Assembly (NCBI GenBank): GCA_023136205.1
Contig: JAGLRQ010000131.1
Span: 1-7,205 of the forward strand
From: Candidatus Auribacterota bacterium
GTDB taxonomy: Bacteria; Auribacterota; UBA6266
Length of the DNA stretch: 7,205 nt
Direction: 5' to 3'
The position numbers and the translations under genes are program-made. The notes under the pieces are model-generated. The model had not been told where the DNA came from. It saw only the letters and a list, made by a program, of their open reading frames with translations, and did no database searches. Positions 1 to 6,275 of this stretch are shown piece by piece. Numbering within the stretch: the stretch's first letter is position 1; each line of letters opens with the position of its first letter.

Positions 1-965
1 TTTTTTATAACTTGCCATATGTGTTTCGGATTGAAGTCTTCAGAAGCAAAAAGAAAGCATTCAAACCCGAACTCTATTATCTTCTTATTCAACAAATGGT
101 TGTTTGTTACAAAAAGAACTCCACAGTTTTTGTTCTCAACCAGGTATTTAGCAATAAGGGTTGCGCGCATAAAGTGTCCAAACCCTAAATCAGGCCCCCC
201 GTCAATAATAAATAATACTTTCCTGCTTTTATCTTCAGGTTTTTTCTGTAAAACATGGGCATTAATAGATTTCAAGTGAGGATTTTTCTCTAAAAATCTG
301 ATAATTTTTTTTAAATCCACTATGTTTTTACGATCCCAAAAACGCTTGTAAATACCCTCCATAAACTTAAAATCTGCCATGTTGTCGATAGATAATCTAT
401 ACCCGGCCTTTTGGAAAACTTTTGCCGGCTTAAAACAGACTGTTTTCCCAAATTCAGGGTGTTCCTTAAGATAAATAGTTACATGCTCTTTATGATAATC
501 CCGGATATCAGATAATCGATAAACTTTTTTAAGTATGCTTAAAGACACTACTGAAAATCCCTCGTGAATGCTAAAGACATCCGGATCCTCTACAAAATAA
601 TCCGCCCCTTTACCAGTCATTACCTTAATGAACCTGTCTATTTCTCTTGGCTCTATTAAAGGAGCATCCCCGGTAATCCTTACAATATAATCCGCCTTAA
701 AATTATCTGCCGCATCAATGTAACGTCTTAAAACATCACTTTCACTGCCTCTGAAAAATTTGATCTTGTATCGTTTACAAAACTTAACTATCGTGGTATC
801 GGCTTCGGTAGTCGAGGTTGCCACAACAATATCATTCAAGTTACTACACTGTTTTAATCTTTTAACAATATGCCAAAGTACGGGTTTGCCGCATAAATCC
901 ATTAGTACCTTGCCCGGCAGCCTTAATGAACCCATTCTTGCCTGAATAATAGCAACTGTTCTCAT
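1..965 (-). CDS. Fusion protein: SpsF/COG1861-type sugar cytidylyltransferase (CTP_transf_3-like, about the first 240 aa) joined in frame to the N-terminal domain of a PseG/SpsG-like UDP-sugar hydrolase. The 3' end runs off the left window edge.
   Basis: This ORF is not in the supplied track. I reverse-complemented 965..1 by hand and got ATG at 965..963 followed by 321 sense codons with no stop, in frame to position 3. The N-terminus MRTVAIIQARMGSLRLPGKVLMDLCGKPVLWHIV, plus IVRITGDAPLIEP and YRLSIDNMADFKFMEGIY, match the conserved blocks of SpsF-like/acylneuraminate cytidylyltransferase-family enzymes. After a short linker (LQKKPEDKSRK), from about nt 218 downward, the sequence VLFIIDGGPDLGFGHFMRATLIAKYL matches the PseG/SpsG N-terminal signature (..D.....G.GH..R...LAK..). 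The ATG overlaps the upstream stop codon (TAATG). Confidence 0.8.
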   Translation of the reverse strand, partial: MRTVAIIQARMGSLRLPGKVLMDLCGKPVLWHIVKRLKQCSNLNDIVVATSTTEADTTIVKFCKRYKIKFFRGSESDVLRRYIDAADNFKADYIVRITGDAPLIEPREIDRFIKVMTGKGADYFVEDPDVFSIHEGFSVVSLSILKKVYRLSDIRDYHKEHVTIYLKEHPEFGKTVCFKPAKVFQKAGYRLSIDNMADFKFMEGIYKRFWDRKNIVDLKKIIRFLEKNPHLKSINAHVLQKKPEDKSRKVLFIIDGGPDLGFGHFMRATLIAKYLVENKNCGVLFVTNNHLLNKKIIEFGFECFLFASEDFNPKHIWQVIK

Positions 966-967
966 TA
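963..967 (-). promoter_or_regulatory. TAATG stop/start overlap (translational coupling) between the short NeuB paralog and the cytidylyltransferase fusion
   Basis: On the minus strand, the TAA stop of the 294-aa ORF (967..965) shares one nucleotide with the ATG (965..963) of the downstream ORF. There is no strong Shine-Dalgarno upstream (..CTGGAAAAAATAATG). Confidence 0.6.
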
Positions 968-1849
968 TTTTTTCCAGGATTTTCTAATCTTTAAAAGAGG
1001 CCTAAGGCCATCAGAAGAGTCAGCACGCCAAACACAATCCTCAAACTCGCTTTGCACAGGAGCCTTATCCCCATTTCCATCAGCCAGAGTAAAATCCTCT
1101 TTTTTTTCTGAGCCATTTCTTACAGCATTTATAACTGCCGCGATTTGATCCGGCAACCAACAATGTCCAATCTGAAATTCTTCTCCGGAACCATCAAGAT
1201 CCATATGGAATTCTATCATCGAAGCATTCCATTTATAAACGGCCCTGTATATAACAGAATCTTTAACACTGTGGTCAGACCATCCTACTTCACATTTATA
1301 TCGGTCTCTCAGTGTTTTTATAGCTGACAGGTTACATTGTTCTACAAGCGCCGGGTAAGCGGAAACACAATGAAGCAATGTTACATCTCTTGCCCCGGCA
1401 GACTTTATAACTTGTACCGCTGAATCAATTTCGTCTATGGTTGCCATCCCTGTTGATAAAATGACAGGTATTTTAGTTTTGGAACAAGACTCAAGCAAAT
1501 CATGCCATAGCAATTCGTACGATGCTATCTTATAAGAATCAACATATGGCTTAAGCTCTTCAACTGCTTCAAGATAGAAAGGAGTACACAAAAACTTCAG
1601 ATTTAACTCATGGCATTTTTGTTTAAGTCTCGGAATAAATTCTAACGGAAGTTCCCAATTTTGTTTTTCACGGTGCCGGGGACTCGCGTTTAATATTTCA
1701 GGGGCAAAAAGTTTATCTATCTTAAAAAGCTGAAATTTTATTCCATCACAGCCGATATTTTTCGATGTTTCAATAAATTTTAAACAGCGATCCAGATCTT
1801 TATTGTGGTTACTTGATATTTCGGCTATAAATTGCACATTGTTTACCAT
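965..1849 (-). CDS. NeuB-family (PEP-condensing) sugar-acid synthase paralog, short form without the C-terminal SAF/antifreeze-like domain (SpsE-like)
   Basis: The 294-aa ORF carries the NeuB TIM-barrel motifs in canonical order: FIAEISSNHNKD, CDGIKFQLF, SYKIASYEL, IPVILSTGMA, VTLLHCVSAYPA, VGWSDHS and MIEFHMDLD. Both predicted metal-ligand histidines are present (SDH and E.H). The protein ends at ..CVWRADSSDGLRPLLKIRKSWKK, which is about where the linker to the SAF domain starts in full-length homologs. By eye it shares roughly 30% identity with the 344-aa paralog in this window. Confidence 0.8.
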   Translation of the reverse strand: MVNNVQFIAEISSNHNKDLDRCLKFIETSKNIGCDGIKFQLFKIDKLFAPEILNASPRHREKQNWELPLEFIPRLKQKCHELNLKFLCTPFYLEAVEELKPYVDSYKIASYELLWHDLLESCSKTKIPVILSTGMATIDEIDSAVQVIKSAGARDVTLLHCVSAYPALVEQCNLSAIKTLRDRYKCEVGWSDHSVKDSVIYRAVYKWNASMIEFHMDLDGSGEEFQIGHCWLPDQIAAVINAVRNGSEKKEDFTLADGNGDKAPVQSEFEDCVWRADSSDGLRPLLKIRKSWKK

Positions 1850-1852
1850 GGG

Positions 1853-1859
1853 CCCCCTT
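1853..1859 (-). promoter_or_regulatory. Shine-Dalgarno-like AAGGGGG upstream of the short NeuB paralog
   Basis: The minus-strand sequence is TAG AAGGGGG CCC ATG. The G-rich purine block lies in the 10-nt gap between the flippase stop (1862..1860) and the ATG at 1849. Spacing is on the short side. Confidence 0.5.
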
Positions 1860-3341
1860 CTATCTCGCGTTTTGCCTGTTTTTCAAAAACCTTTCTTTGA
1901 TATTCTTTAAAACATCAAAATCCCTGTTCATTTTGATAAGGAAAGGAATATACAAAAAGCTGTAAATCACAACACATGTAAAAACATTCAGGATTGACAA
2001 TTCATCTTTCATTACAAAACGGTCCATTGAAAACAGCAGCGCTGCCATAAGCAAAAATTTACACATTATTGCCGCATAATATCGAACTATTTCAACTGTA
2101 GAAAAGATTGTTGACGCTGCTGCCAGAAAAATAACCGTAAAATGAAACGCCAAAGAGACTGTTGTCGCAATCGCCACGCCAACAATGCCATACCCTGAGG
2201 CTATAGCCAGATAATTCAAAATTACCGAAAGAATACATGAAATAATTATCAGCGGATACATTACAAGATACTTTCTAATGGTAATAAGGTAGTTTCCATA
2301 AACATTGCCAAGAGCAACAAAATATATGCTCAAAACAAGGAATTTTAACGCCGGGATACCTTCAACGAACTTTTTCAAAAGTAACCCTATAAAATAAGGC
2401 GCGCATATATATGTCAGGCCTATTACAATCGGCAAAAAATCCGAAAATGCGGCAGCCGATTGGCTTAAATATTTTCTTAAATCGTTTTTATCATCTTTCT
2501 CTCCAAATTTTTCCTGGAAATGCGGCAGTAAGACAACCGCCAAGGAAGTATGAATACTGGTCAGATAATTACACGCCATTATCGCAATGGAATAAAACCC
2601 CATAAACCTGTATCCAATCATGCCTATTATCATTATCCTGTCGATAGATCTGAAAAGAGTTCCCATAAGCCCCAGGACTCTCAGCGGAAGCCCAAAAAGG
2701 ATAAGTTTTTTAAGCTGTTTCCAATCACAGGCAATTTTGAATTTATATCTTTTGTGATAGTATATATAAACTATATTAAAAATAAGGCTAAGCCCTGTGG
2801 CCCACATAAATCCGTAGATCTTAAAAAAATATGACAGGACACCTACAAGGATGACATTTATAATCGCGGATAAGACCATTTGCTTTCCGGCAATATAAAA
2901 ATTCTTATACGCCCGGAGAATCGAAATGAAGAAATTATTTATTCTCTGAAGTATAATAATTATCGAAACAAAGATAAGCCCATAAAAAAGTTCTTCTGAA
3001 AGCTTTTCCCTGAATAAAAAAGTATAAACTATTATGCCAATCGCGACAACAGTCGAAACAATAGTAATAAAGCTGAATGTAATGTTTTTAATCTTATCTG
3101 CTGCCTTCTCATCCTTTTTACCTATCTGATAGGGAATTTCAATGTTGATTGCCGTTGTTGTTCCGAGAGTAATGTATTTTGCGAAATTCAACACTACCTG
3201 AAGAACCGCCCATATTCCTACCTGTACCGGGCCTAAAAACTTCCTTGAAAGAATAGCGCCAATCACGCCAACAGCCTGCGTTATAATATTAGCCGCTGAG
3301 TAAACAGCAGTATGTTTTAATATTTCCTTTTTCTTGGACAT
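1860..3341 (-). CDS. MOP-superfamily polysaccharide/oligosaccharide flippase (Wzx-like, Polysacc_synt family)
   Basis: The 493-aa ORF is extremely hydrophobic, with many runs of about 20 I/L/F/V/G/A residues (I estimate 12 or more TM helices). The N-terminus KHTAVYSAANIITQAVGVIGAILSRKFLGPVQVGIWAVLQVV resembles the conserved start of Wzx/MOP flippases (..R.LGP...G..). A basic cytoplasmic tail and the location inside a sugar-biosynthesis operon also fit. Confidence 0.75.
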   Translation of the reverse strand: MSKKKEILKHTAVYSAANIITQAVGVIGAILSRKFLGPVQVGIWAVLQVVLNFAKYITLGTTTAINIEIPYQIGKKDEKAADKIKNITFSFITIVSTVVAIGIIVYTFLFREKLSEELFYGLIFVSIIIILQRINNFFISILRAYKNFYIAGKQMVLSAIINVILVGVLSYFFKIYGFMWATGLSLIFNIVYIYYHKRYKFKIACDWKQLKKLILFGLPLRVLGLMGTLFRSIDRIMIIGMIGYRFMGFYSIAIMACNYLTSIHTSLAVVLLPHFQEKFGEKDDKNDLRKYLSQSAAAFSDFLPIVIGLTYICAPYFIGLLLKKFVEGIPALKFLVLSIYFVALGNVYGNYLITIRKYLVMYPLIIISCILSVILNYLAIASGYGIVGVAIATTVSLAFHFTVIFLAAASTIFSTVEIVRYYAAIMCKFLLMAALLFSMDRFVMKDELSILNVFTCVVIYSFLYIPFLIKMNRDFDVLKNIKERFLKNRQNAR

Positions 3342-3366
3342 AATTTAATAGTTACTTTCAACTTTT

Positions 3367-5217
3367 TTATTCAACAAGCTGATTAAAAATACCAACAAAA
3401 TCATCGTCAGAAAAGGGTATTTCAACAACGTAATCATCAGGGTTGGCATAAAAAAACTCTTTTATTATGGAAATAGCGTCTTCAATTTCTGAAAAGGTTT
3501 GCAGGGATCTGCCAAATACATCTTTTGCTTCTTTAATAATGTTAAAATAATCAGCACACACACAAAGAACGCTTTTCCCGGCCTTAGCAGCTTCAAAAAG
3601 CGCCCCCGAAGGATAATCTACAATCACTTTGTCCGCATGTTTCGCTAATTTTATAAATGGCTCTTCACGAACGGTTATATTTCTATATCCCTTATCCTCT
3701 ATATACTTAAGTATTGACTCCCTTGCCCATTCCTGCCCTATGGAATGTTTGTACACAAAATCAAAACTTGTTTCCCGCCCGAAAAAATCTACAATACTTT
3801 TCTGGTATTTATAATACCAATTAAGAGGATAGATCATATTGTTAAAACTTCTAACTCTATCGGGGAATTTTTTTTCTACATAAATCACCGTCGGCGCTTT
3901 ACCAAATTTCAAAGTCTTTTTCTTTTCTCTTATGCTTCTTAAATAGTGAGCCGACTGAACCGGTTTACAGTCGCAGCTGTATATTTCAGAAAGTGCTCTT
4001 TTGTAATATTCATGGGATATATCATCACGCGTTAAAACAAAATCGTATGTTTCCATCTCAATTACGGCAAACACCTCATTATTTAAAGCAAAGTTAGAAT
4101 GCTGCACACATACACTTTTCGCGCCTCTCATATATTTCGCCGCTATTATAGAGCCCAATGAATCCCTATCAGTATTTCCTCTCGCGAATATACAATCGAT
4201 TTTATTTTTTTTATAAAAACCAAGCATTTTTTCAGCATTTTGAAGAACACAACAACAATCCTCAGAAATAAAGTTTTCCAGAAAGGCAACAACTATCAAC
4301 GATACATCCAGCCCGCATTTATTGTTTATCCACGGAATTATTTTCTTATCATCTTTTAATAACCTGGAACACCGCACACACTCATCCTCTATTTGTTTAA
4401 GAGTACCACTATCTGCTTCCTGTATATCAAGAGACTTTCTTAAAAATAAATCTTCCCGCAGCACCTTGTCCTTTTCCTGTAAGTAAACTTTTGCCCCATT
4501 TACCAGAAGTTCTTTCAGCGGATAATCTACGTCAACAGATCCCGCGTGCATAAAAAAGACATGCCGGTTTTTAAAGGCAGCATTTAAAGTTAAAAGCTTT
4601 GTAACTTTTTCGTACTTAACAAAATTATAAATGCTTTTGAGAAAGGATTTTAGAGATGGATTGCAACCAAATCCCGCATGGTAAGATTCTTTTCGCCGCA
4701 ACCCTTTTTCATCAGCAATTCGCGTGGAAAAAGCAATATTGCTCTTTTTGCAAAATAGCTCTAACAAATCTTTAAATACTTTTCGGTTTATTCGCTTAAA
4801 ATCAAAGATAGATTCGCCGTTCTGTTCGGGAAAAGGTTTAGCAACATAAATTACTTCCTCAATTTCTTTCTCTTTTTCAATAAATTTAGAAATTATAAAG
4901 GAATATATTACTATCGTGTCTACAAAGTACTTAAGACGCAGATAATTTGCTCTGGCAAGAGGTATGTCAAACCTGAAACATAAAGAGATATGCTCTTTTA
5001 GAAAGCCATCAAAAGATTCAAACCACTTAAGCTGGTCAAAATAATAATCCTTTTCCTCAGCTCTCAAATCTTTTTCGGAATAGTAGTCCTCGAGTATTTT
5101 GTATTTAAGATTATTTTTATCTAAATAATATGAGGCAGAACAGTCAAGAGAAATTATACCTTCCCCTTGATAATTAATAGAGGGATCATAATAATCGAGT
5201 AAAAAAAAACGTTTCAT
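3367..5217 (-). CDS. Uncharacterised 616-aa soluble protein. Residues about 215-616 look like a GT-B/Rossmann-type glycosyl (possibly nonulosonyl) transferase, preceded by an N-terminal extension of about 215 aa with unknown function.
   Basis: This is a long uninterrupted ORF in the operon frame with an ATG at 5217 and no hydrophobic TM runs. Rossmann-like strands are RHVFFMHAGSVD and IDCIFARGNTDRDSLGSIIAAKYMRGAKSVCVQHS, which resemble a GT-B N-domain or 2-epimerase block. The C-terminal blocks APTVIYVEKKFPDR, FVYKHSIGQE and ADKVIVDYPSGALFEAAKAGKSVLCV are reminiscent of TagF, Capsule_synth (KpsS/KpsC) and polysialyltransferase C-domains. That it is a real CDS is high confidence. The functional call is low confidence. 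Confidence 0.55.
   Translation of the reverse strand: MKRFFLLDYYDPSINYQGEGIISLDCSASYYLDKNNLKYKILEDYYSEKDLRAEEKDYYFDQLKWFESFDGFLKEHISLCFRFDIPLARANYLRLKYFVDTIVIYSFIISKFIEKEKEIEEVIYVAKPFPEQNGESIFDFKRINRKVFKDLLELFCKKSNIAFSTRIADEKGLRRKESYHAGFGCNPSLKSFLKSIYNFVKYEKVTKLLTLNAAFKNRHVFFMHAGSVDVDYPLKELLVNGAKVYLQEKDKVLREDLFLRKSLDIQEADSGTLKQIEDECVRCSRLLKDDKKIIPWINNKCGLDVSLIVVAFLENFISEDCCCVLQNAEKMLGFYKKNKIDCIFARGNTDRDSLGSIIAAKYMRGAKSVCVQHSNFALNNEVFAVIEMETYDFVLTRDDISHEYYKRALSEIYSCDCKPVQSAHYLRSIREKKKTLKFGKAPTVIYVEKKFPDRVRSFNNMIYPLNWYYKYQKSIVDFFGRETSFDFVYKHSIGQEWARESILKYIEDKGYRNITVREEPFIKLAKHADKVIVDYPSGALFEAAKAGKSVLCVCADYFNIIKEAKDVFGRSLQTFSEIEDAISIIKEFFYANPDDYVVEIPFSDDDFVGIFNQLVE
5201..5209 (-). repeat. T9 homopolymer on the coding strand (A9 on the plus strand) in codons 3-6 of the 616-aa gene
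   Basis: The minus strand reads ATG AAA CGT TTT TTT TTA CTC. It is the longest mononucleotide run I found in the window; other runs reach at most 8 nt. Confidence 0.9.
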
Positions 5218-5240
5218 TTTACAATAAAAAATTGGTTTTC

Positions 5241-6275
5241 CTATGAAATAAGCTTCCAGTCGAGAGGGGTTCCATTTTTAATGTTTTTCCTCGCCGTTTT
5301 TCCCAAAATTTTTTTAAAATTGTTGGGTTTAAGCCCATCTGCCGGCCTTATGGAACGGACATTATCTTCCGTAAACTTTTCCCCTTTTTTAATATCTTTT
5401 ACAACAAACAAAGACCTTCTGAAAACACGGCTTTTTTTCTGGCCGGGGGTTAATCCATAATGTATTTTCCCGAGGGCGTCTTCCGCCATGCGAATATTAT
5501 CAACCAGATCTTTTAGTTCTGCCGGCTCAAGAGAAAAGAAACTGTCGGGAGTTTTTATCTTTCGTGATAAAGTAAAATGTTTTTCAATCATACACGCTCC
5601 CAGAGTAACAGCCGCGGCTGATACACCAGTTCCCATCGTGTGGTCCGAAAGCCCAACAGGAAGGTTAAACCTTTTTTTCATATCGGTTATTGTTCTAAGA
5701 TTCATCTCCCGCGGACGGGCAGGATAACTACTTACGCATTTTAAGAGTGTTATATCTTTCGCACCTGATTTTTTAGCAGCATTTACCGCTTCTCTTATTT
5801 CAGATAAATCAGCCATTCCGGTTGATAAAATCACCGGTTTTCTTGTTTTTGCCATATATTCTATTAAAGGTATGTCAACCAGCTCGAAAGAGGCTATTTT
5901 GTGCAATGGAACATTTATATCTTCAAGAAAATCAACCGCTGTTTTATCAAAAGCTGTTGAAAAAAATATTATGCCTTCGTCATCCGCAATTTTTTTAAGT
6001 TTTTTAAACCAGTGCCAGGGAGTATATGCTTTGCTGTAGAGCCTATACAATGTCTGCCCTCCCCACTTCGGATGATCTATCTTAAAATACCTCTTGCAGG
6101 AGTCTATCGTAAGTGTATCCGGGGTATAAGTCTGAAGTTTTATCGCGTCCGCGCCGCATTTTTTCGCCTTTTTTATCATTGCCACCGCGCGGTTAAAATT
6201 CTGGCCGTGATTTGCCGAAATTTCGGCAACGACAAAACAACGTTTTTGTTTTTTTATAACACTACCTGTTTTCAT
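5241..6275 (-). CDS. pseI: Nonulosonic acid synthase of the NeuB family with a C-terminal SAF domain, most similar to pseudaminic acid synthase PseI
   Basis: The 344-aa ORF has these motifs: VVAEISANHGQN, ADAIKLQTYTPDTLT (the ISANH and QTYTPD.(L/M)T forms are what I remember from PseI rather than NeuB/LegI), HKIASFELVD, KPVILSTGMA, ITLLKCVSSYPA, VGLSDHTMG, MIEKHFTL and PDSFFSLEP. The SAF domain is RRSLFVVKDIKKGEKFTEDNVRSIRPADGLKP...GKTARKNIKNGTPLDW (about nt 5244..5423). The start ATG at 6275 overlaps the upstream gene by 14 nt. Confidence 0.8.
   Translation of the reverse strand: MKTGSVIKKQKRCFVVAEISANHGQNFNRAVAMIKKAKKCGADAIKLQTYTPDTLTIDSCKRYFKIDHPKWGGQTLYRLYSKAYTPWHWFKKLKKIADDEGIIFFSTAFDKTAVDFLEDINVPLHKIASFELVDIPLIEYMAKTRKPVILSTGMADLSEIREAVNAAKKSGAKDITLLKCVSSYPARPREMNLRTITDMKKRFNLPVGLSDHTMGTGVSAAAVTLGACMIEKHFTLSRKIKTPDSFFSLEPAELKDLVDNIRMAEDALGKIHYGLTPGQKKSRVFRRSLFVVKDIKKGEKFTEDNVRSIRPADGLKPNNFKKILGKTARKNIKNGTPLDWKLIS

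Follow-up and report, generated by a model that had tools for sequence, protein, structure and literature searches.

Gene content of the pseudaminic acid operon

A 7,205-nucleotide (nt) stretch of DNA from a Candidatus Auribacterota bacterium (GenBank assembly GCA_023136205.1, contig JAGLRQ010000131.1, positions 1 to 7,205), referred to as the window throughout, carries genes for nonulosonic acid (NulO) synthesis and, among them, a gene for a 616-amino-acid (aa) protein that we analyzed as a candidate NulO-transferring glycosyltransferase (GT). Its open reading frame (ORF) is the largest of the window and lies exactly where the original prediction had placed it, between sugar-acid synthesis genes and a flippase gene on the same strand, with 23 nt separating it from the stop codon of the pseudaminic acid synthase gene (PseI) before it and 25 nt from the start codon of the flippase gene after it. 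The main ORFs of the window are densely packed on one strand and follow each other, in order of transcription, as the C-terminus of a PseG-like protein, a formyltransferase-like gene, PseI, the 616-aa gene, a Wzx-type flippase, a second NeuB-like synthase, and the start of a further gene. Promoter-like and terminator-like sites occur at background level in a scan of the window, which, together with the tight same-strand packing, fits a single operon. The following features were assigned from ORF translations and Pfam and NCBIfam scans.

3367..5217 including the stop codon, reverse strand: 616-aa ORF with ATG start; predicted GT-B-fold glycosyltransferase of a divergent LIC12162-like family
5241..6275, reverse strand: PseI (pseudaminic acid synthase, NeuB and SAF domains), directly upstream; TIGR03586 at 483.6 bits (cut-off 340.25); Pfam NeuB and SAF
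1860..3341, reverse strand: Wzx-type MOP flippase of 493 aa with ~14 hydrophobic segments, directly downstream; Pfam Polysacc_synt and Polysacc_synt_3, NCBIfam MOP flippase
6262..6795, reverse strand: formyltransferase-like protein of 177 aa, catalytic domain only; Pfam Formyl_trans_N at 1.7e-10, NCBIfam ArnA/Fmt-type matches
6786..7205, reverse strand: C-terminal part of a PseG-like hydrolase of uridine diphosphate (UDP)-sugars; Pfam and NCBIfam matches; 314 aa in the near-identical contig L001
965..1849, reverse strand: second NeuB-family synthase of 294 aa without SAF domain; Pfam NeuB at 2e-58, NCBIfam NeuB/PseI scores well under their cut-offs
1..965, reverse strand: cytidylyltransferase fused to a PseG-like domain, first ~321 of 573 codons; whole gene at L001 14253-15974

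The same scans bear out that the window has no glycosyltransferase besides the 616-aa candidate, except for what it holds of the PseG-like hydrolase, a C-terminal part. The formyltransferase-like ORF overlaps both the PseG-like and the PseI ORF.

With 5 mismatches over 7205 nt, the window is 99.93% identical to positions 8013-15217 of contig DAOWCX010000034.1 (L001) from a Candidatus Auribacterota metagenome-assembled genome (MAG; GCA_030639325.1), and the 616-aa protein is 100% identical to its counterpart there. The window hence stems from a population variant that is almost the same as, but distinct from, the record of that contig. Upstream, the operon on L001 encodes PseB, PseC, a cytidylyltransferase, a PseH-like GNAT acetyltransferase, a GFO-type oxidoreductase, a second DegT aminotransferase, and the PseG-like protein, which at full length scores 127 bits on the PseG model TIGR03590, under its cut-off of 153.55. 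PseB (515 bits against 408), PseC (491 against 424), and PseI (484 against 340) pass their equivalog cut-offs. Together with the cytidylyltransferase, PseG-like, and PseH-like proteins, these enzymes make the pathway to pseudaminic acid (Pse) activated with cytidine monophosphate (CMP) essentially complete, and the missing step is the transfer of the sugar.

Predicted fold, conserved residues, and family of the 616-aa protein

Neither Pfam nor NCBIfam gave a match to the 616-aa protein itself, even with the threshold relaxed to E ≤ 1. Sequence searches of the Protein Data Bank (PDB) with the single sequence, a profile of the window's clade, or a broad 51-sequence profile returned nothing meaningful, and tblastn searches of annotated plasmids with the 616-aa protein or its relative P0163 gave zero matches. 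AlphaFold2, run on a 30-sequence alignment, produced a model with a mean predicted local distance difference test score (pLDDT) of 90.5 and a predicted template modelling (TM) score of 0.90, with disorder only at residues 171-185. Compared with PDB structures by Foldseek, this model yielded 198 matches at E ≤ 1e-3, the best 50 of which are all GT-B nucleotide-sugar enzymes (E ~1e-7, 10-13% identity, target-normalised TM 0.5-0.6), including an OtsA-like trehalose-phosphate synthase, BshA, PglA, GtfA, CalG1, and UDP-GlcNAc 2-epimerases such as NeuC and MnaA. The GT-B-type fold and the Rossmann-like strands that had been proposed from the sequence are thus present in the model, and the 616-aa protein is predicted to be a GT-B fold with an extra N-terminal alpha/beta module. 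We consider it highly probable that the protein acts as a GT-B nucleotide-sugar enzyme in the glycan pathway encoded by the operon. Three regions can be delimited, with boundaries drawn from the secondary structure of the model rather than from its coordinates.

4573..5217, reverse strand (residues 1-215): N-terminal alpha/beta module; strands 2-7, 20-23, 119-126, and 162-167, helical bundle 55-115, disordered linker 171-185
3928..4572, reverse strand (residues ~216-430): putative GT-B N-terminal Rossmann-like (acceptor) domain; helical insertion 270-338, H373
3370..3927, reverse strand (residues ~431-616): predicted GT-B C-terminal (nucleotide-sugar donor) domain; K490 and D534-x7-E542

In the AlphaFold2 model, the strands of the middle region run over residues 219-222, 243-248, 342-346, 367-371, 393-396, and 418-421, and those of the C-terminal region over 443-447, 486-490, 514-517, 530-533, 549-555, and 572-575. 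In relatives of the protein, weak alignments to GT4 N-domains fall on residues ~300-385 (TuaC and BshA stretches on P0176) and alignments to GT4 C-domains on residues ~410-590, which places the GT-B core at residues ~216-616 and leaves residues 1-215 as an additional module. Modelled alone, this module reached a pLDDT of 83.7, and a search of it against solved structures gave no significant match (best E 0.013, TM ~0.3), in line with the earlier description of an N-terminal region of about 215 aa without recognised motif. No convincing transmembrane segment was found by hydropathy; a membrane protein was rejected, as the top hydropathy segment holds Glu and Asp and lies within a confidently modelled helix.

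Conservation was assessed in an alignment of 51 sequences. H373 and D534 are invariant (51/51), and K490 (49/51), E542 (48/51), P536 (46/51), D70 (50/51), D100 (49/51), and N513 (49/51) nearly so. H373 (window positions 4099-4101) belongs to a Q-H-[GSA] motif that follows a strand of the N-terminal Rossmann domain, K490 is encoded at 3748-3750, and D534 and E542 (3592-3618) delimit an acidic-x7-Glu motif, D534-[YRF]-P-[ST]-[TG]-x-[LF]-[FY]-E542-[AS], in the C-terminal domain, followed by A-x-x-x-G-x-P-V. Compared without superposition, this arrangement resembles the EX7E donor-binding motif and the C-domain of GT4 enzymes, with the difference that the first acidic residue is Asp here and Glu there. 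H373, K490, and D534-x7-E542 are candidate catalytic residues.

All sequence blocks singled out in the original prediction occur in the protein, namely APTVIYVEKKFPDR (residues 441-454), YKHSIGQE (489-496), and VIVDYPSGALFEAAKAGKSVLCV (531-553) in the C-terminal part, and the three DYY-containing stretches LLDYYDP (6-12), LEDYYSEKD (42-50), and EKDYYFDQ (55-62) near the N-terminus. Three DYY within 60 residues are unlikely by chance in this sequence (P ~1e-4 by shuffling of the 616-aa sequence), but among 30 homologs the middle copy alone is conserved (D44 23/30, Y45 23/30, Y46 29/30), whereas the outer copies are not (D8 4/30, Y9 2/30, D57 5/30, Y59 1/30). The triplet that had been described as a thrice-repeated element is therefore real in this protein, yet it was rejected as a conserved repeat.

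Kinship was established through relatives. The NCBIfam model TIGR04331 (LIC12162 family transferase) weakly matches 18 of the 51 aligned proteins, with a best E of 4.9e-9; all remain far below its curated cut-off of 225 bits, which no family member reaches. The alignments are collinear, pairing residues ~408-590 of the relatives with positions ~362-526 of the 585-position profile, so that only the C-terminal domain aligns to a model that is otherwise of like size (585 positions against 616 aa). Precomputed matches to the corresponding Pfam family PF27859 (LIC12162) are weak in P0019, P0032, P0182, and P0188 and confident in P0163, and P0163 in turn scores 307 bits on the profile of the window's clade. 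Aligned by hhalign, this clade and the PF27859-positive subclade match at full length (probability 100%, E 3.5e-96, 610 columns, 23% identity). Taken together, these comparisons make the 616-aa protein a divergent member of the LIC12162-like superfamily, whose full-length homology to PF27859-positive proteins is, at the level of sequence profiles, a transitive one. Databases already label this superfamily as putative transferases, and the 616-aa protein escapes their curated models. Its placement outside named families hence stands as far as direct Pfam and NCBIfam matches go and fails with respect to remote, full-length kinship, and the family cannot be called wholly undescribed, given its relation to the catalogued LIC12162 family transferase (TIGR04331/PF27859). 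LIC12162 is an annotation-only family for which we found no experimentally characterised member. Like the window's family, it occurs beside nonulosonic-acid genes; in Herbaspirillum, a LIC12162-family gene adjoins neuABC, as mentioned in passing (PMC6679464).

A Pfam scan of the 51 members, from which 25 of the 26 families found at E ≤ 1 are listed, returned sub-threshold matches of the GT4 type: Glyco_trans_1_2 in 9/51 (best 5.6e-5), Glyco_transf_4 in 5/51 (best 1.2e-5), and Glyco_trans_4_4 in 3/51. No member passes a gathering threshold of these families, and the 616-aa protein has no match to them. GT4-type GT-B enzymes such as BshA (3MBO), PglA (8DQD), and the OtsA-like protein (5TVG) share the two-Rossmann-domain fold with it at a Foldseek E of ~1e-7, but with only 10-13% identity and with ~250 extra residues on the side of the 616-aa protein (the 215-aa N-terminal module and the insertion 270-338).

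The protein is not an orphan either, as had been supposed. A word-indexed search found 32 close homologs of 612-637 aa, unnamed or annotated as hypothetical, in metagenomes of Omnitrophota and Auribacterota, and a repeat search with a broad alignment returned the same 32 proteins. An exhaustive profile search across 1.84 billion representatives, in which family representatives are clusters at 50% identity, recovered 980 at E ≤ 1e-3, 597 at E ≤ 1e-10, and 272 at E ≤ 1e-30. Among the 150 matches listed, most are full length, at a family size of ~600-650 aa; they derive from Omnitrophota, Auribacterota, and Planctomycetia metagenomes, the Planctomycetia MAGs being added by genome matches. In most listed representatives the match starts at profile position 1-6, and the N-terminal region is consequently an integral part of the family.

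Two members depart from the common architecture. P0039 (L009 7322-11128; L020 7322-11146) consists of two family modules fused in tandem (1274 aa, halves 30% identical), an arrangement that recalls the dual GT modules of KpsC. H373, K490, D534, E542, D70, and D100 are kept in both halves, which suggests that both modules may be active. P0119 (906 aa) is extended at its N-terminus by ~300 aa (residues 1-300, starting VVSHDAGGAEIL); the extension has zero matches in Pfam and NCBIfam, no fusion partner was identified, and it may represent an additional Rossmann-like domain.

Gene neighborhoods across the family

The genomic context of the family was surveyed in 19 informative distinct loci, presence being counted within the fetched region. 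A NeuB/PseI-family gene is found in 14 of them and lies directly upstream of the family gene in seven (L001, L007, L008, L009, L012, L013, and L014), and a Wzx-type flippase is found in 15, directly adjacent in ten. The association with NeuB and Wzx holds in the PF27859-positive subclade (L021, L022, and L023), whose members are ~24% identical to the 616-aa protein. At L007 the order is PseB, PseC, a PseF-like cytidylyltransferase, PseG/PseH, PseI, and the family gene. Homologs are therefore strongly associated with NulO loci, as the original prediction had implied, and no characterised family of unrelated function emerged as a match.

Membrane glycosyltransferases of the GT-C type (PMT_2/ArnT-like, YfhO, MptA_B, and DUF2079) recur in about 7 of 17 loci, at the following positions.

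L004 10616-12316: GT-C type
L006 15909-19182: GT-C type
L007 940-4223 and 13097-14413: GT-C type
L008 14256-16856: GT-C type
L020 14312-16774: GT-C type
L016 1539-3323: GT-C type
L002 21645 to the end: GT-C type

Where the gene tables of the loci are annotated with Pfam families, no O-antigen ligase or polymerase family is listed.

Several further genes travel with the family. L006 and L015 contain orthologs of the window's formyltransferase-like gene that are 54% identical to it, and L002 and L022 contain longer versions; its presence in the operon suggests an N-formylated Pse derivative. According to NCBIfam, residues 1-120 of the 573-aa fusion protein are of the KdsB/PseF type and residues 249-509 correspond to PseG; this gene and the second NeuB (L001 13369-15974) suggest a second, partial NulO branch of the operon, and a comparable pair of a short NeuB and a CTP_transf_3 protein is found in L021. 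A GNAT acetyltransferase, a GFO/IDH/MocA oxidoreductase, and a second DegT aminotransferase accompany the family gene in L001 (4647-7491), L008, L010, L015, L016, L017, and L022; the trio is up to 70% identical across loci and recalls the WbpB/WbpE/WbpD-type 3-amination of a UDP-sugar. Four loci (L001 1425-1709, L002 3268-3459, L007 4328-4567, and L008 365-604) have a small gene of the HTH_17 (excisionase/MerR-like) type immediately before the PseB-like gene, which may encode a conserved regulator heading the operon. B12-binding radical SAM enzymes recur in the glycan loci as well (L001 1-1256; L020 11158-12756; L021 6248-7792 and 16114-17622; L022 2869-4848), a hint that the sugar may be C-methylated in an unusual way or altered by other radical chemistry.

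Candidate function and its alternatives

The 616-aa gene is the most plausible candidate for the pseudaminyl transferase of the operon. On balance, we lean towards a cytoplasmic, CMP-Pse-dependent glycosyltransferase that would act on a lipid-linked acceptor before flipping; NulO-transferase activity as such is inferred from gene context. In the proposed mechanism, a soluble or peripheral GT-B enzyme would use as donor the CMP-activated, pseudaminic-acid-type NulO made by the operon, possibly as an N-formylated derivative, and would attach it, on the inner side of the membrane, to a lipid-linked glycan, after which the adjacent Wzx flippase would export the product. The C-terminal domain would bind the donor nucleotide, with E542 contacting the ribose, a role that falls to the latter Glu of EX7E in GT4 enzymes, and K490 contacting the phosphate. 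H373 of the N-terminal Rossmann domain could serve as catalytic base or position the acceptor, and the family-specific N-terminal module, with D70 and D100, may aid recognition of the acceptor or the membrane.

The best functional analogy is provided by Tanf_01245 and TFUB4_00887 of Tannerella forsythia, soluble GT-B transferases of Pse and legionaminic acid (Leg) derivatives that are encoded directly downstream of CMP-NulO genes and whose knockouts lose the terminal NulO (PMC5420450). No sequence relationship to these proteins was detected; they are TagB-like, comprise 442-445 aa, and carry DXD, D/E-D/E-G, and HP motifs (PMC5420450), unlike the 616-aa protein, which has neither HP nor D/E-D/E-G. 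A second point of reference is the group of KpsS1 (GT118) and KpsS/KpsC/WbbB/KrkA (GT107, GT99, and GT140), retaining enzymes that use CMP-activated ulosonic and nonulosonic acids; KpsS demonstrates that transfer of an ulosonic acid to a lipid acceptor exists (PMC12887879). These enzymes are GT-B-derived with extra helical subdomains, in likeness to the 616-aa protein, but no sequence similarity was detected and no such structure is among the best 50 Foldseek matches.

A C-terminal domain resembling those of TagF, KpsS/KpsC, or bacterial polysialyltransferases, as had been suggested from the sequence, did not hold up. Neither TagF, KpsC/WbbB/KpsS, nor sialyltransferases (GT38, GT52, and GT80 included) appear among the best 50 of the 198 Foldseek matches. 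Glyphos_transf (PF04464; TagF/TagB) and Capsule_synth (PF05159; KpsS/KpsC, GT107/GT118) match neither the 616-aa protein nor, among the 25 of 26 families listed, any of the 51 members, and MAF_flag10 (PF01973), the family of Maf flagellin NulO transferases, likewise matches neither the 616-aa protein nor, among the families listed, its relatives. A relationship to TagF, KpsC, or polysialyltransferases was therefore rejected, the best 50 structural matches being GT4-type enzymes and UDP-GlcNAc 2-epimerases, the weak Pfam matches being of the GT4 type, and the sialyltransferase motifs HP and D/E-D/E-G being absent.

A number of observations weigh against a Pse transferase. The fold match is generic, with UDP-GlcNAc 2-epimerases and hydrolases scoring level with transferases. 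The HP and D/E-D/E-G motifs of CMP-sialic-acid GT-B transferases have no counterpart in the protein, nor as conserved columns in the 51-sequence alignment. The 616-aa protein has no match to TIGR04331 even at E ≤ 1 and none to PF27859 in precomputed annotations, and our literature search found no experimental study of the LIC12162 family or of the window's family and no mention of TIGR04331 or PF27859. Five of the 19 loci are without NeuB in the fetched region. Among the exceptions, L002/L003 have zero NeuB within 10 kb on either side, and their neighbors resemble a 2-acetamidino-6-deoxyhexose pathway; NeuB is likewise missing from the range covered at L017 and at L016, the latter of which does hold NulO-type genes; L011 and L019 are short contigs. 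Moreover, loci of the family also hold other sugar pathways and other glycosyltransferases, and the family gene could accordingly handle a different sugar.

Such an enzyme would be a GT-B transferase of the same glycan that moves, for example, a UDP-linked di-N-acetylated or acetamidino hexose flanking the NulO, its linkage to Pse reflecting a shared locus only. We regard this as unlikely. At L002/L003 the family gene adjoins WbuX/Y/Z-like amidotransferase genes, a PseB/FnlA-like dehydratase gene, and an Epimerase_2 gene; the weak matches are to GT4-type models, normally users of UDP- or guanosine diphosphate (GDP)-sugars, the D-x7-E motif points the same way through its resemblance to GT4 EX7E, and the GFO/DegT/GNAT trio of many loci is suggestive of a second amino-sugar pathway. 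These points contrast with the position of the family gene directly after PseI in seven loci and with NeuB being found, in clades of only 22-25% identity, at 14 of 19 loci, with several loci (L007 and L008) in which no other candidate NulO transferase accompanies the complete CMP-Pse gene set, and with the related LIC12162-family transferase beside neuABC in Herbaspirillum (PMC6679464). An activity other than transfer is highly improbable: as a GT-B-fold nucleotide-sugar hydrolase or 2-epimerase, analogous to PseG, NeuC, or LegG, the protein would work for the second synthase of the NeuB type, or else for a modified NulO branch. Hydrolysing NeuC and other UDP-GlcNAc 2-epimerases do rank among the best Foldseek matches with E-values equal to those of transferases, and the window operon does hold a second NeuB-like synthase. 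However, most loci already have a PseG-like gene, the second pathway in the window's operon comes with a PseG-like domain as part of its cytidylyltransferase fusion, and most loci carry the family gene with a single NeuB; furthermore, the families listed from the scan of the 51 members include GT4 and putative-glycosyltransferase models but not Epimerase_2.

The ten loci in which transferase and flippase genes are directly adjacent also speak for another reading, in which the 616-aa protein would load CMP-activated Pse, possibly N-formylated, onto a lipid carrier, either undecaprenyl phosphate or a phospholipid. In that case it would be the first part of an unrecognised transferase-flippase-GT-C system analogous to ArnC/ArnEF/ArnT or GtrB/GtrA/GtrC, with Wzx flipping the sugar-loaded lipid and a GT-C enzyme of the periplasm (PMT_2/ArnT-like, YfhO, or DUF2079) moving the sugar on to an acceptor in the envelope. 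GT-C genes in ~7 of 17 loci and the lack of ligase or polymerase families in the Pfam-annotated locus tables agree with such a system, as do the parallel between the ArnA-like formyltransferase domain gene and the Arn pathway and the KpsS precedent for placing an ulosonic acid onto lipid (PMC12887879). We nevertheless hold it to be improbable, since known carrier-loading enzymes are membrane-anchored GT2 proteins, not soluble GT-B enzymes, and no membrane-binding segment was identified in the 616-aa protein; in addition, many loci have no GT-C gene in the fetched range, and several other glycosyltransferases in the loci are consistent with the assembly of an oligosaccharide repeat.

A Pse transferase acting on a lipid-linked acceptor thus stands as a well-supported candidate and comes without surprise, as a specialist would expect NulO genes to have a glycosyltransferase next to them. 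As late as 2024-2026, GT families acting on ulosonic acids continued to be newly established (PMC5420450, PMC12887879). The family described here comprises ~1000 sequence clusters, tightly linked to Pse synthases and flippases, without a characterised member or solved structure. To our knowledge, few transferases for pseudaminic and legionaminic acid have been characterised, and those few belong to unrelated families (Maf, FlmG, the TagB-like Tanf_01245, and KpsS1/GT118). A carrier-loading system, if real, would extend Arn/Gtr-like logic to nonulosonic acids and define a new CAZy family. If a member of the family does transfer Pse, a function would be assigned to the catalogued LIC12162-like superfamily, a new CAZy family would probably be founded, and a handle would be gained on the surface glycans of the poorly known phyla Omnitrophota, Auribacterota, and Planctomycetota.

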